Shown piece after piece: positions 51,532 to 61,730 of a stretch of DNA of 64,000 nt (positions are counted from its first letter, which is position 1; the number at the start of each line of letters is the position of its first letter). The notes beneath the pieces are model-generated. The model ran no database searches, was not told the origin of the DNA, and saw only the letters and a list, made by a program, of their open reading frames with translations. Where the stretch lies: NCBI GenBank assembly GCA_944320495.1, contig CALUHR010000013.1, forward strand, positions 416,001-480,000, written 5' to 3'. The stretch comes from Candidatus Methanomethylophilaceae archaeon. GTDB lineage: Archaea > Thermoplasmatota > Thermoplasmata > Methanomassiliicoccales > Methanomethylophilaceae. Made by a program: the position numbers and the translations under genes.

Positions 51532-52401
51532 ATGGATGGGAACACAAGGATGGAGGATCTGGAGCAGCATCTGCTGTTCCACAGGGCGCTCGCCGACGAC
51601 GACGAGTCGCTCAGGAGGATAGGGGGATACATGGACATCCTCTCCCGGGCGGAGTCCGGGGAGAGGCTCCAGGACCCCGTGGACGAGTCGATCAGGGCCG
51701 TCTTCAGCCTGGTGCTGGAGAAGGGCATCGACCCCTGGGAGGTGGACCTCTCGGAGTTCGCCCGCATGTACGAGGCCAAGGTCTCCAGGGACAGCTTCGA
51801 CATGATCGTCGCGGGCAAGCTGCTGCTCATGGCATGGAGAATCCTGCGCATGCAGTCGGAGTCCACTAGGGCCAGGAGCGAGCCGCCGGTCGAGCCCGTC
51901 ATCGAGGAGGCCGACGACAGCTTCTTCTTCGAGGACGAGCCGCTGTACGTGCCCGAGGTCAGCTTCAGGGAGGCCTTCAGGAGGCAGACCGAGAGGCCCG
52001 TCACCGTGTACGAGCTCATCGACGCCTTCGAGGACGCCCGCAGGGACATCGATATCCAGCGCGAGCGCGAGCGCGTCCGCCGCGAGCTCAAGGCCAAGGA
52101 GCCCAAGAGGTTCGACAACAAGGCCCACGACGAGGACGACGAGCGCGACGTCGAGGCCGTGTGGAAGCGGATCGAGAGGCTCGGCACCGGGCAGATCGCC
52201 ATCCGCGACCTCTACACAGCCGACCTCCAGGAGAACCTCACCACCTTCGTGGCGGTGCTCCACCTGGTCAGGGACGGCAGGCTGGCCGTCTGGCAGGACG
52301 AGCTGCCCTACGGCACCATCTATCTGGAGATCAAGACGGACTGGTCCTCAGGGACCCTCGAGGACTCGCCCGGCCAGCTGGTGACCGAGGCGGTGAACCG
52401 A
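51532..52401 (+). CDS. scpA: segregation/condensation protein A, kleisin (289 aa, CGA-terminated)
   Basis: IDPWEVDL and C-terminal TFVAVLHLVRDGRLAVWQ motifs. The CGA at 52399-52401 lies 1 nt before the scpB TTG. Confidence 0.9.
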
Positions 52402-53092: not shown

Positions 53093-53176
53093 ATGAGCAT
53101 CATGACGGTGCCCTCTGCCGACGTAGATGCCGCTCCGAGTGCCAGTGCAGTCCATCGGGACCTGGAGGACTGCCGA
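53093..53176 (+). CDS. putative 24-27 aa leader ORF coupled to the ABC permease via CGATG
   Basis: ATG 53093 (or 53102) downstream of a CCTTATAT box reads MSIMTVPSADVDAAPSASAVHRDLEDC, then a CGA whose A is the first base of the permease ATG. Confidence 0.45.
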
Positions 53177-54822
53177 TGTCCCTCCTGAAGAAGATAGATG
53201 AGATATCCGGCAGCTACAAGGCGAGGAACGCCTGGCTGACGTTCGCCATAGTTCTCTTCATAGCGATCATCGTCATCCCCGCGATATTCGTAGTCACCAA
53301 GCTCTTCACGGAGTGGGACCTGGTCAGCGGGGTCCTGAACGATCCCGCGAGCATGGAGGTAATCGAGGGCGCGGTGTGGAACTCGTTCAGCATAGCGGCC
53401 ATAGTCACGGTCATCGACATCCTCGTGGGACTGCCGATGGCGTGGATCATGGTCCGCAGGGATTTCAAGGGCAAGAAATGGCTCGACACCCTGCTGGACA
53501 TGCCCCTGGCGTTCCCGACCGCCGTCCTCGGAATCTCGGTGGTCATGTTCTGGGGCGCCCCCGAGGGCATCACGATCCCGGGGCTGGGGCTGGACCTGTC
53601 ACCGTACGTGATGCTCCTGTTCCTCCACATCATATTCACCTATCCGTACATGGTCCGCTCCCTGTCCGGAATCCTGGAGCAGATCGACGTCAACTACGAG
53701 ACCGCGGCCATGACCCTCGGCGCTTCGAAATGGACCGCCGTGAGGACCATCACGATCCCCCTGTTCCGCGCCGGTCTCGCCACCGGGTTCATCCTGTGCT
53801 TCGCCAGGTCCCTGTCGGAGACCGGGGGCACATACATCGCCCTGACCATGATGGGCGTCGAGAGCACCTTCTTCACCGGGCCGTCGTTCATCAGCTGGCT
53901 GAAGTCCGACCCGACCATGGTCGACTCCGGGGACTACATGGGCGCCATGATCCTGATCAGCGTAGTCATGATCGTCCTGGCCCTGATCCTCCTCGTGGTG
54001 GTGAAGTGGATCATCGCGAGGTTCAGGATCCCCTGGAAGAAGGTCTGGCCGGAGATCGGCAGGAGCGTCAGCCGCGGCCCCCTCCCGAAGGTCAAGGACG
54101 TCATCACAGTCGTGTTCCTGATTATCGTGGTCCTGCTGCCCTCTTTCTACATATTCGCGTATCTGACGGAGCCGATCCCCGACATAGACTACGGGACGCT
54201 CCTGTCGTCCACCGGGGTGTCGTTCCTGGTTGCGGGCGTGGCCGTCCTCGTCGACCTCATCCTGGGCATCCCGCTGTCGCTCTACATCGCCAGGCACAAG
54301 GGCGGGAAGCTCGCCGGCATCCTGGACGGGCTGGTCAACGTCCCCCTGATCATCCCGACCACCGCGCTTGGATTCTCCCTGGCGCTGTTCTGGGCCAGCT
54401 TCGGTGCTGGGGACTCGATGGCCATCGTGCTGGTCATCCTCGGTCACATCTCGTTCACGTATCCGCTCGTGGTGAGGAACCTGGTGGGCGCGATAGAGGA
54501 GGTCAACCCGGAGTGCGAGGAGATCGCCATGACCCTCGGCGCCAAGCCCTTCCGCGCGTTCAGGACAATCCTCATGCCGATCATCAAGTCGTCCGTCGTC
54601 GCCGGATGCATCCTGGCGTTCACCAGGTCCCTGGGCGAGACGGGCGCGACCATCGCCATCAGCGACAGCGTCAGCACGGTCCCGATCTACATCACCAACC
54701 TGGTCCAGGACCACATGTACACCGAGGCGGCGATGTGCTCCATCGTCCTGATCGCCATCTGCTTCGTGCTGATGATGGTCGTCAGGATGCTAACACACAG
54801 GAGGCAGGGTAGGGATGCCTGA
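53176..54822 (+). CDS. ABC transporter permease, two fused TMDs (Fe3+/molybdate/sulfate-like class)
   Basis: Two EAA-like loops (ETAAMTLGAS, EEIAMTLGAK) and FARSLSETG / FTRSLGETGA motifs. Confidence 0.9.
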   Translation: MSLLKKIDEISGSYKARNAWLTFAIVLFIAIIVIPAIFVVTKLFTEWDLVSGVLNDPASMEVIEGAVWNSFSIAAIVTVIDILVGLPMAWIMVRRDFKGKKWLDTLLDMPLAFPTAVLGISVVMFWGAPEGITIPGLGLDLSPYVMLLFLHIIFTYPYMVRSLSGILEQIDVNYETAAMTLGASKWTAVRTITIPLFRAGLATGFILCFARSLSETGGTYIALTMMGVESTFFTGPSFISWLKSDPTMVDSGDYMGAMILISVVMIVLALILLVVVKWIIARFRIPWKKVWPEIGRSVSRGPLPKVKDVITVVFLIIVVLLPSFYIFAYLTEPIPDIDYGTLLSSTGVSFLVAGVAVLVDLILGIPLSLYIARHKGGKLAGILDGLVNVPLIIPTTALGFSLALFWASFGAGDSMAIVLVILGHISFTYPLVVRNLVGAIEEVNPECEEIAMTLGAKPFRAFRTILMPIIKSSVVAGCILAFTRSLGETGATIAISDSVSTVPIYITNLVQDHMYTEAAMCSIVLIAICFVLMMVVRMLTHRRQGRDA

Positions 54823-55915
54823 GATTGTTCTGGACGACCTCTGCAAGGACTTCGACGGCCATGTCGCAGCCGACCATCTGAGCCTGACCATAGGCGATGG
54901 GGAGTACGTCTGCATCCTGGGTCCCACCGGGGCCGGGAAGACCACCGCCATGAGGATGATCTGCGGTCTCACGATCCCCGATTCCGGGAGGGTGCTCCTG
55001 GACGGGAGGGACGTGACCATGGATTCGCCGGACTCCAGGAACGCCACCATGCTCACGCAGACCTACGCGCTATTCCCGCACATGACGGTCTACAACAACG
55101 TCATGTTCGCCCCCAAGACCAAGGGGTGGCCGGAGGGCGAGTCGAAGCAGATCGTCAGGAGCATGCTGCACCTGGTGCATCTCGACCAGAAGGCGGACTG
55201 GGTCCCCGGGGAGCTATCCGGCGGCCAGCAGCAGCGCATTGCCCTCGCCCGCGCCCTCGCATCCGGGTCGAAGATCCTCCTGCTGGACGAGCCGCTCAGG
55301 GCGCTGGACGCGCGCCTGAGGATCGACCTGAGGAAGGAGCTCAGGTCCCTGGCCAAGGAGATGGGGCTCACGTGCATCCACGTCACCCACGACCAGGATG
55401 AGGCCCTGGAGATGGCCGACCGCATCGCCGTCATCCGCAAGGGCAGGATCATACAGTTCGGGACCCCCCGCGAGGTCTTCGAGAACCCGGCCACGCCGTT
55501 CGTGGCCAACTTCGTGGGCAGGTCCAACATATTCTCCGGCAAGGTCGTCGGAGCCGGCGACGGCAGGGTGTCCGTGGACGTCGGCGGGATCGTCCTGACC
55601 GGGAGGGGGGACGGGATGGAGCCCGGCTCCGAGGCGGTTCTCGCCGTCAAGGTCGGGTTCACCAGGCTCTCGGCGCCCGGGGAGGGGCCGGAAGGTTCCG
55701 TGAAGGGCATAGTGGAGCGCATCGTGTACGAGGGGGCCACCGTGACCGTGGAGGTCTCCGCCGGGTCGTTGGGCCTGGTTTCGTCCAAGCTGCCGAGCGC
55801 GAGGTTCGAGGAGTTCAGCGTCGGAGCCGCGGTCGATGTATCGTGGCCGGCCGACAAGGCGACGGTGTTCCAGATGCCCGCCGGCGGGCTCGAAGAGGAG
55901 ATGAGGTTGGACCGA
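54815..55915 (+). CDS. ABC transporter ATP-binding protein 1 (366 aa, CGA-terminated)
   Basis: GPTGAGKT, LSGGQQQR, LLLDEP and HVTHD motifs plus a TOBE domain; ends EEEMRLD-CGA, overlapping the next ATG. Confidence 0.92.
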
Positions 55916-57000
55916 TGGCAAGGATCAAGTTGGACAGGATCTCCATGCGCTTCGGCGATTTCTACGCCGTCAGGGACATATCGCTCGAGATCGGGAACGG
56001 CGAGTACGTGACCATCCTCGGACCGTCCGGTTGCGGCAAGACCACGCTCATCAAGGTCATATCGGGGATCTGGACCCCGACCGAGGGGAAGGTCTACGTG
56101 GATGGCAGGGACGTCACGAACATCCCCATGGAGGACAGGGACGTCGGATACGTGTTCCAGAACATCGCACTGTTCCCGCACATGAACCTGAGGGACAACG
56201 TCGAGTACAGTCCCAGGGTGAAGGACCAGGGCGACGAGAGGATGGCCGAGCTGTCAGAGGAGTACCTCAAGCTCGTGGGCATGTTCCAGAGGGCCGGGAT
56301 GCTCCCGTCGGAGCTCTCCGGAGGGGAGCAGCAGAAGGTCGCCATCGCCCGCGCGCTGGCATCCGGTTCCAAGATGCTGATGCTCGACGAGCCGCTGTCC
56401 GCTCTGGACGCTCGCGTCCGCGTCGAGCTGAGGTACGAGCTCCGCAGGATCGTCAAGAAGCTCGGGATAACCGTTCTCCACGTCACGCACGACCAGGAGG
56501 AGGCCATGTCGGTCTCCGACCGCATCGTGCTCATGCGCTACGGCGCCATCGCCGAGTCCGGTGCGCCCCTGGACATATACCGCCGTCCGAAGTCCGTCTT
56601 CGCGGCCAACTTCATCGGGGAGACCAACCTCTTCGAGTGCACCGTCTCCGATTGGTCCAAGAGCGGGAAGACCAGGGTCACCATGCGCGGTGGCCGCGAG
56701 ATCCGCGTGTCCCGCACGGACTTCCGTCCCGGGGACGCCGTCGTAGTGTCCGTGAGGCCGGAGCATGTGCGTCCGGACGAGGACGGGATCGAGGCGAAGG
56801 TGCGCTCCGTGTCCTTCAGAGGGGTCTACTGGAGGGTGAGGACCATGGCCGAGAGCAGTGACTATATTGAGTACGACGTACCTGCAGACGGTGAGGTCCC
56901 CGAGGTGGGAGACACCGTGCGCCTGTCCTTCGACAGGAACGCATCCGTCGTGTTCCCCAGACCCGAGGGCGGAATAGAGGAGGAGATCAGACTTGAGTAA
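55915..57000 (+). CDS. ABC transporter ATP-binding protein 2 (361 aa)
   Basis: GPSGCGKT, LSGGEQQK and MLDEP motifs; ends EEEIRLE-TAA. Confidence 0.93.
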   Translation: MARIKLDRISMRFGDFYAVRDISLEIGNGEYVTILGPSGCGKTTLIKVISGIWTPTEGKVYVDGRDVTNIPMEDRDVGYVFQNIALFPHMNLRDNVEYSPRVKDQGDERMAELSEEYLKLVGMFQRAGMLPSELSGGEQQKVAIARALASGSKMLMLDEPLSALDARVRVELRYELRRIVKKLGITVLHVTHDQEEAMSVSDRIVLMRYGAIAESGAPLDIYRRPKSVFAANFIGETNLFECTVSDWSKSGKTRVTMRGGREIRVSRTDFRPGDAVVVSVRPEHVRPDEDGIEAKVRSVSFRGVYWRVRTMAESSDYIEYDVPADGEVPEVGDTVRLSFDRNASVVFPRPEGGIEEEIRLE

Positions 57001-57673
57001 GGATCAATCCGGCCTGCTTGGATGGTTCGGGAAGAGGAAGGAGGGCGTCGTCGGAGACGGTCTCCGCGCCATGTCCCTCTCCGTCCGCGACTGCGTAACC
57101 GAACTTGGCCTGGCACTGCGCGCCATGGGCGAGGAGGACTCCTCCGCCGCCAAGAAGGCCATCGAGAGGCTGTTCAAGTGCGAGCACGAGGCCGACGCCC
57201 AGGAGGACGAGCTCTGCAACCAGATAAGCATAGGCGAGCTCGGCGCCCAGGAGCGCGAGGACCTCATGCACTTCATCCGCAAGACGGACAAGATCGCCAA
57301 CTGGAGCAAGGAGGCCGCCATCGGCGTCTCCCTGGTCGACGAGCTGGGCATGAAGGTGCCCAAGGGCATCTGGGACATGCTCGCGCAGTCCGTGTCCGAC
57401 CTGGAGTCGGAGGTCCGCGGCCTCGCCAATTCGATAGAGATGATGGGGTCCGAGGGATCCGACATCATGGAGTGCGTCCGCGGCATCAGGGAGATGGAGA
57501 GGACGCTCGACCGCGCCTACTACGAGATGACGAAGACCATCTTCCGCGCGGACATCGATCCCAAGGCGGTCATCATGCTGCTGAGGATAGTGGACGCCAT
57601 CGAGATGGCGGCGGACACCTGCAAGGCCTGCTCCGACACCGTCGCGATCCTCCACTACGCCAAGAGGGTGTGA
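56993..57673 (+). CDS. DUF47/PhoU-like helical bundle protein
   Basis: Repeated EHEADAQ / EREDL...D-K-I-A and ERTLD...D-A-I-E-M-A-A-D motifs. Confidence 0.85.
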   Translation: MSKDQSGLLGWFGKRKEGVVGDGLRAMSLSVRDCVTELGLALRAMGEEDSSAAKKAIERLFKCEHEADAQEDELCNQISIGELGAQEREDLMHFIRKTDKIANWSKEAAIGVSLVDELGMKVPKGIWDMLAQSVSDLESEVRGLANSIEMMGSEGSDIMECVRGIREMERTLDRAYYEMTKTIFRADIDPKAVIMLLRIVDAIEMAADTCKACSDTVAILHYAKRV

Positions 57674-60629: not shown

Positions 60630-61730
60630 TCGCCGCCTGCGCGGTCCGCCCTTGCCCTTGCCGCCCCTGTTCCTGGGCTTCCCCGACTTCTGCTTCTGGG
60701 GCTTCTTCGGCGGGTCGGGGTACCTCCTGCGGATGTCCTCCACCCTGGCCCTGAACTCCTCGTTCAGGCGGTCCCCGGCGAACTCGCCGTGGTACTCGTC
60801 GATCTTCGCCGCGATCAGGACCTTGCCGGCCAGCGCCCTGGCGACCTTCCCGCGCTGCCAATAGGGCGAGCGGTGGACCTCCGGGTGCTGGTAGATTATG
60901 CCGTGCTTGGGCCCCCTCTTGCCGGAGCGCATGCTCCTGAACATGGCCTTCTCGGCCCCGAGGAGCTGCACGGTGGAAGACGGGAGGGAGGCGAGCCTCT
61001 CCAGCCCTCCGGCGAGGGACACCAGCCTCGCGGCCAGCGGTCCTCCGAGCATGGCGCACATGTTGGGGCACGACTCCTCGACGATCCCCTGGATGTAGGC
61101 CTGGGTCCTGAGCTCGTCGTCGTAGAGGCGGTCGAGGGTGTCCGCCAGGTCCATGACCGCGCGGAGGTCCTCGTCATCCATGTCGGACCCGATGGACTCG
61201 ATGTCTATGCCGAGCTCCCCCATCACGGAGTCCCTGTCGCCGTATCTGGCGACGAGCTCGGCGTACCTCCTGTCGTGGGCGTAGTCCGCGAGCTCCGGGA
61301 AGTGCATCCCGTACCACTCGTGCAGCCTCTCGTTGTACAGGTTGATCGTCGCGATCTGGTCGTCCAGGCATCTGATGGCCTGGGCCATGCTGCGGTCCCT
61401 GGCTATGGGCTCGGAGGTCCTGAGCCTGCCGAGTCCCAGCATGACCTCGTGCATGAACGCGTCGTCGTATCCGTAGTCGGCGGCATGGATGAACGAGGAG
61501 TCGAACATCATGGGCTTCCCGAGCTCGGACTGCCTGCGCTCGGATACGGAGGGCTTCTCGATTCCGGCGACGAGCTCGCGCTCCTCGTCGAGCACGCCCC
61601 CGCGCTGCATCTCCGCCAGCTTCTGCGCCGCGGCCTCGGCGTCCTTGGGCATCAGCCTCTTGTCGAGGATCCTCCCGGACTTCTCGTCCACGAGGAAGCA
61701 CCCGAACCATTTCGTCACGAGCACCGCCAT
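60630..61730 (-). CDS. nop5: C/D box sRNP protein Nop5/Nop56 (366 aa, CGA-terminated)
   Basis: NERLHEWYGMHFPEL, LASLPSSTVQLLGAEKAMF and KHGIIYQHP motifs; the basic tail ends GKGKGGPRRR-CGA. Confidence 0.92.

Follow-up and report, generated by a model that had tools for sequence, protein, structure and literature searches.

We analysed the junction of two tandem ATP-binding cassette (ABC) ATPase genes in a 64,000-nucleotide stretch of archaeal DNA (G000:C13:416001-480000), called the window below. The host genome, G000, is that of a gut methanogen and has a size of 1.77 Mb with 61.6% guanine plus cytosine (GC), and about 1300 open reading frames (ORFs) were called in it. The coding region of the first gene, ATPase 1, comprises 366 codons on the + strand (54815..55912), as delimited by its ORF, by Pfam and by alignment with its paralog and orthologs. 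It starts with the ATG at 54815 and ends in ...GGLEEEMRLD, the GAC of D366 at 55910-55912 being the final sense codon. The triplet that occupies the terminator position of ATPase 1 is a CGA (55913..55915, + strand) with U as the following base (+4). At this junction, gac CGA TGg, the A of the CGA also opens the ATG of ATPase 2 (55915-55917), a protein of 361 aa (55915..57000, + strand) that ends in ...GGIEEEIRLE and is closed by the TAA at 56998-57000. Under the standard code, the CGA adds 32 residues (itself included) to ATPase 1, giving 398 aa instead of 366, and the reading frame runs on through a tail (55916..56011, + strand) to the TGA at 56009-56011. An earlier reading made from the sequence alone (the sequence-only reading) had described the two endings and an extension of 32 residues overlapping the next gene, and both descriptions were borne out when the sequence was read again.

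The two ATPases were compared with each other. Both contain an ABC_tran domain (PF00005) and a C-terminal TOBE_2 domain (PF08402) over the cut-offs, located in ATPase 1 at residues 20-161 and 290-352, and both are thus ABC ATPases with a TOBE domain of the PotA/CysA/WtpC type. BLASTP aligned them end-to-end with 40% identity (E 7e-91) and placed D366 opposite the last residue of ATPase 2, E361, which puts the CGA of the first copy at the position of the TAA of the second, as had been claimed; the 32-residue tail found no counterpart in ATPase 2 in this alignment. The paralog pair was also proposed as an internal control for a stop at CGA. It does mark the end of the conserved protein, but it is silent on how efficiently ribosomes stop there. 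No in-frame CGA was found in the 366 and 361 codons of the two genes, which hold 23 and 36 Arg codons (59 in all), and 56 CGA triplets occur across the same stretch when all frames are counted. With off-frame stops occurring at a rate of about 2.3% per codon, a tail that stays open for 32 codons is unremarkable by itself. Finally, a Shine-Dalgarno (SD)-like GAGGAG/GAGGT, read from the sequence, lies within the EEEMRL codons (55895..55907, + strand); the 3' end of its GAGGT is 7 nt upstream of the ATPase 2 ATG, and it may have a role in reinitiation.

The junction in related genomes

The junction was compared in 66 other genomes or records, made up of 17 genomes of the same order and 49 further archaeal records. 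The codon after the conserved C-terminus was TGA, TAA or TAG in 55 of the 66 and CGA in 10, and one alignment had slipped. Among the 17 genomes of the order, the codon following ...EEEMRLD or ...ELKVE was TGA or TAG in 15 and CGA in G018 and G009, whose nucleotide identities are 96% and 75%, respectively. The 49 further records, among them records of several assembly projects, gave 37 TGA, three TAA and eight CGA, along with the slipped alignment. CGA-bearing orthologs were seen in close relatives only (Ca. Methanoprimaticola), and near relatives disagree at the junction, G013 having TGA and G009 having CGA. The record titled Ca. Methanoprimaticola sp. MG2 has TGA at this point. Together with the paralog alignment, these comparisons show the conserved ATPase 1 protein, at the level of sequence, to end at D366, where relatives have a standard stop, and the same rule is found genome-wide (see below).

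The orthologs also keep a stop/start overlap suited to translational coupling, in the form of TGATG (G013, G024 and others), TGAcATG or TAGATG. Judging by these relatives, the overlap is ancestral, and the local CGATG is therefore a TGATG that has undergone a T-to-C change, in agreement with the analogy to TGATG drawn in the sequence-only reading. The varying frame relation of the two genes (TGATG, TGAcATG, TAGATG) rules out a -1 shift that would fuse ATPase 1 to ATPase 2.

In the CGA-bearing orthologs the tail varies in length from 26 to 102 codons. Over the region of overlap, the ATPase 2 frame is 97-100% identical in these orthologs vs. 68-77% for the tail frame, and all substitutions there leave the ATPase 2 protein unchanged and alter the tail. 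The identity of the tail frame is likewise 74% in a genome where a TGA blocks the tail. We judge from this pattern that the tail evolves without constraint and probably lies outside the functional protein. A conserved extension in orthologs had been named as evidence that would speak against a stop; the 10 CGA orthologs have tails of differing length instead, and a conserved functional extension is ruled out by this variability and by the lack of constraint.

In a public protein collection, the 398-aa reading belongs to a cluster of 22 members at 90% (NCBI, ENA, Logan), and the 366-aa form is absent from the collection. As the CGA recurs in several assembly projects and in this 22-member cluster, a sequencing or assembly artefact is ruled out. 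The CGA is real DNA, recurrent and currently mis-annotated. Several records with this archaeal operon bear bacterial titles (Bifidobacteriaceae, Bacteroides ovatus, Prevotella hominis, Dialister hominis and others), and these bins look mislabelled.

CGA at gene ends across the genome and the genus

The use of CGA in G000 was described without recourse to homology. In gene centres, in-frame CGA occurs at 0.47-0.63 per 1000 vs. 34.5 off-frame, the strongest depletion among the sense codons, and along ORFs chosen by codon statistics its distribution is U-shaped, with 421 and 302 occurrences in the end deciles vs. about 10 in the middle deciles. CGA is thus near-absent from conserved sense positions. 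For 223 tailed ORFs the best coding segment was then located with rare-codon scores capped so that CGA and CGG weigh equally. The first codon past this segment was CGA in 63 cases, AGA in 15 and CGG in fewer than 8, although CGG is as common off-frame as CGA. With a criterion based on coding and non-coding flanks, 215 of 1156 classed genes (18.6%) were CGA-terminated, the genome holding 97,784 CGA triplets in total. About 20 CGAs have coding sequence on both sides; most of them are junctions of same-frame neighbour genes, and the exceptions are found in aRF1, L18e and one flavodoxin gene. The next standard stop is nearer past CGA terminators (median 15 vs. 29 codons), but because ORF selection disfavours long tails, these nearer backup stops were not counted as evidence of leakiness.

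The terminators also differ from other CGA triplets by their context. U occupies +4 in 59% of CGA terminators vs. 23% of all CGA triplets, and C and G in 16% and 20% (36% together). CGATG is found at 25.6% of CGA terminators vs. 6.8% of TGA terminators for TGATG. The ATPase 1 site has this favoured context, being both CGAU and CGATG. A separate observation is that CGATCG (the CGA counted) occurs at 13% of CGA terminators vs. 1.4% of all CGA triplets, with an example in the window at 60630-60635; no case of this palindrome serving two convergent genes as a common terminator was found in the G000 gene set.

We then turned to a complete genome of the same genus, G008 (1,664,211 bases), and matched the ORFs of the two genomes. 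Of 99 G000 genes with a 3' CGA, 50 had their first CGA exactly at the G008 C-terminus, 74 had it no more than 2 residues away and 89 no more than 5; the G000 standard stop coincided with the G008 end in only 3. As a control, among 511 G000 genes without a 3' CGA, the standard stop coincided with the G008 end in 302 and lay no more than 2 residues from it in 441. CGA was the second commonest G000 codon opposite G008 stops (TGA 282, CGA 46, TAA 10, TAG 4). TGG, which is the other GC-increasing transition from TGA, was outside the 15 commonest codons at these positions, with fewer than 4 occurrences. To judge from this comparison, the equivalence with stops is specific to CGA and is not a general loss of stops. 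Both at the ATPase 1 locus and genome-wide, CGA sits where orthologs have standard stops.

The genus is not uniform in this respect. In G008 (53.5% GC), in-frame CGA occurs at 0.07 per 1000 and CGA terminators make up about 1%; a 220-kb sample of G005 gave 0.04 per 1000 and almost no CGA terminators. The purge of CGA is therefore present in all three genus genomes analysed (G000, G008 and G005), whereas in the outgroup G030 CGA is a rare, evenly spread sense codon (1.1 per 1000). With regard to GC pressure as a possible driver, the two-genome contrast is 62% GC with 19% CGA terminators vs. 53.5% GC with about 1%. Neutral drift from TGA to CGA, once CGA terminates, would fit the pattern seen in the genus.

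Release factor, tRNA and the competing readings of CGA

The CGA at 55913-55915 is, in our estimation, quite probably the working end of ATPase 1, acting as a competitive and probably leaky terminator that is read by aRF1, the single class-I release factor of G000. CGA has been removed from ordinary Arg positions and marks the end of about 19% of genes, and such terminators would arise from TGA stops by a T-to-C change. At these sites aRF1 would accept CGA as a UGA-like codon, causing the ribosome to terminate, and would compete with a tRNA-Arg(UCG) that is deviant in structure and probably weak. Termination would be favoured by U as the following base, which is the situation at ATPase 1. The one-base CGATG overlap, with its GAGGT just upstream, could then allow ribosomes that have terminated to reinitiate at ATPase 2, in the manner of the TGATG of relatives. 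The geometry is identical to that of TGATG coupling, which occurs in the same operon of relatives with an SD-like GAGGT upstream, and the ATPase 1 junction differs from it by a C as first base.

A reaction of this kind has been described in yeast (Wada and Ito 2018, PMC7379694), where eRF1/eRF3 competes with tRNA-Arg and detectably decodes a lone CGA at a gene end as stop. In that system, a bulky residue (F, R or Y) at the x of YxC favours release at CGA by eRF1 (PMC7379694). Yeast eRF1 is a class-I factor of the eukaryotic and archaeal type, like aRF1, which has Y-R-C at this motif; since Y-R-C is common to outgroups that use CGA as Arg, it is a predisposition at most. Moreover, release at CGA is a weak side reaction on reporters in yeast, whereas here CGA is apparently the normal end of about 19% of genes.

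Several observations weigh against CGA as a terminator read by aRF1. First, the NIKS and YxCxxxF (Y-R-C-xxx-F) motifs of aRF1 are intact, and the genus-specific substitutions only flank NIKS (QASNIKSKTTMK vs. QSSNIKSQGTRK), so that the sequence of the factor gives no proof that it recognises C at the first codon position. Second, the cognate tRNA has not been lost. The G000 gene for tRNA-Arg(UCG) is located at G000:C13:413317-413390 (+), 2.6 kb before the window, and the tRNA is kept in 17 of 17 genus genomes examined, with compensatory changes in its stems that point to a structurally conserved, functional molecule. An apparent loss in a subclade (G005, G007, G008, G015 and G019) was rejected when ARAGORN, run on the whole of G008, found a divergent copy; BLAST with this copy recovered the remaining ones, which an earlier BLAST and two pattern searches had missed. 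Third, CGA is retained in frame at conserved residues of two essential genes and so has a dual meaning. In aRF1 itself it is codon 78, for the Arg in the conserved RLK segment that follows NIKS (G000:C2:86932-86934, -), and in L18e it encodes residue 31 (IW-R-D; G000:C13:191824-191826, -). Both must be read as Arg. Because of them, termination at CGA is probably incomplete, and some read-through into the 32-residue tail of ATPase 1 is likely. Fourth, both sense CGAs are followed by C or G, as are a share of the terminators, so that context alone does not separate the two fates. Fifth, G008 and G005 have purged CGA yet hardly use it as a terminator, and CGA could simply be unassigned in these two genomes. 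The claim of a CGA stop made in the sequence-only reading is therefore upheld by the genome-wide data, but not in the form of a pure stop, given that tRNA-Arg(UCG) is kept and that aRF1 and L18e use CGA for Arg.

At the L18e site, 29 of 30 genomes across the order, all outgroup families included, share the rare codon CGA, and its context is conserved at the nucleotide level (ATCTGG-CGA-GA(C/T)); one genus genome has CGT.

The sense CGA of aRF1 leads to a more tentative proposal, which we hold to be possible rather than likely, namely that CGA has two meanings in this genus, terminating by default and specifying Arg wherever the weakened tRNA-Arg(UCG) wins, and that the CGA of aRF1 acts as a sensor which sets the level of the factor and hence the balance of termination and read-through at one fifth of the genes. 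Codon 78 is CGA in 22 of 23 genus genomes, though neighbouring codons vary synonymously; the seven outgroups have CGC, CGT, CGG or AGA, and G005 has AAG, with CGA still avoided. An in-frame CGA in aRF1 would give negative feedback of the RF2 type, an archaeal parallel that relies on a sense codon turned stop. Bacterial prfB, the gene for RF2, is autoregulated through an in-frame UGA that is bypassed by a +1 frameshift. The two cases are alike in that the gene of a codon-reading factor carries the codon in frame at a conserved position, and, by analogy, high activity of the factor would lower its own synthesis; they differ in that the bypass in aRF1 would be read-through by tRNA-Arg and not a +1 frameshift. 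In another part of aRF1, at residues ~27-30, G000 and its near-twin G018 have GRSTELIS vs. GRGTELIS in all other aRF1 examined, a region equivalent to the GTS loop of eRF1.

An alternative that we consider unlikely is that CGA is unassigned, or "hungry". The deviant tRNA-Arg(UCG) would decode it poorly, ribosomes would stall, and the chain would be freed by rescue, either through aRF1 acting without true codon recognition or through Pelota-type rescue and hydrolysis, with no reassignment of codon recognition. The abnormal anticodon arm found throughout the genus speaks for it: the stem has only 4 bp in 17 of 17 genomes, with a 31-39 mismatch in 12 and a 27-43 mismatch plus C33 in 5, while the arm is canonical in 7 outgroup genomes; the G000 tRNA combines an A31-A39 mismatch with a short D-loop and a 4-nt variable loop. 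The unchanged recognition motifs of aRF1 and the purge without uptake in G008 and G005 are in line with stalling as well, and the yeast study frames release at CGA as rescue of stalled ribosomes (PMC7379694). On the other hand, about 215 G000 genes, core genes among them, rely on CGA, and stalling on one fifth of the genes would be costly. The strong preference for U at +4 resembles a context effect of release factors, and L18e, a ribosomal protein and presumably highly expressed, retains a CGA. The outcome for ATPase 1 would be identical, an end at D366; indeed, D366 is the functional end of the protein under any of the rival explanations.

It is far less plausible that the standard code applies and that a TGA-to-CGA stop loss simply gave ATPase 1 a tolerated junk tail of 32 residues and a length of 398 aa. 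The presence of tRNA-Arg(UCG), the use of CGA for Arg in aRF1 and L18e and the 398-aa form in public collections would all agree with this, but one fifth of the genes would need the same stop loss, always to CGA and never to TGG or another neighbour of TGA. The standard code also offers no reason for the purge of CGA from gene interiors, and the tail is unconstrained and variable in length.

Least credible of all is C-to-U editing of the mRNA, which turns CGA into UGA by a single change and is known to create stops in this way in plant organelles, but of which we know no description in archaea, and which would need a sense of reading frame or the recognition of about 215 unrelated sites among all the CGA triplets of the genome; its frame-blind form is ruled out, as off-frame NCG-A(T) codons align to the encoded residues in G008 like other NCG codons, with no Val, Met or Leu signal.

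Termination at CGA by aRF1 in competition with tRNA-Arg(UCG) was compared with known changes of the code. Sense codons have become stops in organelles, namely AGA/AGG in vertebrate mitochondria (table 2), TCA in Scenedesmus mitochondria (table 22) and TTA in Thraustochytrium mitochondria (table 23), and to our knowledge such changes have so far been accepted for organelles only. As in those codes, the sense codon is gone from gene interiors and present at gene ends. The present case differs in its host, a free-living archaeon in which about 1300 ORFs were called, in the codon concerned, CGA, and in the retention of the cognate tRNA in altered form; CGA also still stands for Arg at no fewer than two conserved sites. 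In two archaeal assemblies from hydrothermal vents, CGA was reported to be absent from recognisable domains and to be a possible stop, the author stating that a stop could not be inferred (Melnykov 2026, bioRxiv 10.64898/2026.04.02.715157). Those assemblies come from marine hydrothermal-vent samples, read CGG as Trp and are without tRNA-UCG, and that study mentions no "Methanom..." names. The literature searched gave no report of a CGA stop in the present genus and no description of a sense-to-stop change of CGA in a free-living cell.

If true, termination at CGA in G000 would mean that a sense codon has become a stop in the genetic code of a free-living organism, one with termination of the archaeal and eukaryotic type, and it would show a route to such a change: purge of the codon, weakening of the tRNA, then drift from TGA to CGA. 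The features of aRF1 and of the tRNA would be handles on how factors of the eRF1 type read the first base of the codon. Public gene calls for the species hold the 398-aa ATPase, and about one fifth of G000 genes would be falsely tailed or fused to a neighbour.

The operon and further CGA sites

The two ATPases belong to an operon that consists of a fused double permease of the sulfate/molybdate/tungstate type, ATPase 1, ATPase 2 and a PhoU-like protein. The permease gene (53176..54822, + strand) is an ORF of 548 aa that ends in TGA and encodes two permease halves of the CysT/ModB/WtpB type, all matches being below the equivalog cut-offs; its 3' end overlaps the start of ATPase 1 by 8 nt. Downstream in the same operon, the PhoU-like protein (56993..57673, + strand) was assigned to the TIGR00153 family by a match below the cut-off. 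None of the operon proteins reaches an NCBIfam equivalog cut-off, and for this reason no substrate is given.

The criterion of coding and non-coding flanks yielded nine further CGA terminators in the window, at 880(-), 27628(-), 33038(-), 41715(+), 42280(+), 47745(+), 52399(+), 60630(-) and 61730(-). The coordinate is in each case the lowest + strand base of the triplet, genes on the - strand reading TCG on the + strand. At the terminator at 52399, the tail under the standard code would be 120 codons long.

Elsewhere, single CGAs were seen at unusual positions. In a Flavodoxin_4 gene of G000 (G000:C8:55331-55840, +), codon 119 is a CGA and falls within the domain (profile match 26-167); the gene may have a third sense CGA, may have been imported recently or may be decaying. 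G008 has an internal CGA at residue 231 of a conserved protein encoded at G008:C1:186604-187804 (-), where the G000 ortholog (78% identical as protein) has GGA, a lone sense-like CGA in a genome otherwise almost without CGA. Finally, two ORFs called with the standard code each hold two genes in one frame, split only by a CGA. One (L025:102-1184, -) joins a SIS-domain gene to a HAD phosphatase gene downstream of it, and the other (L030:102-1595, -) joins two FMN reductase genes.

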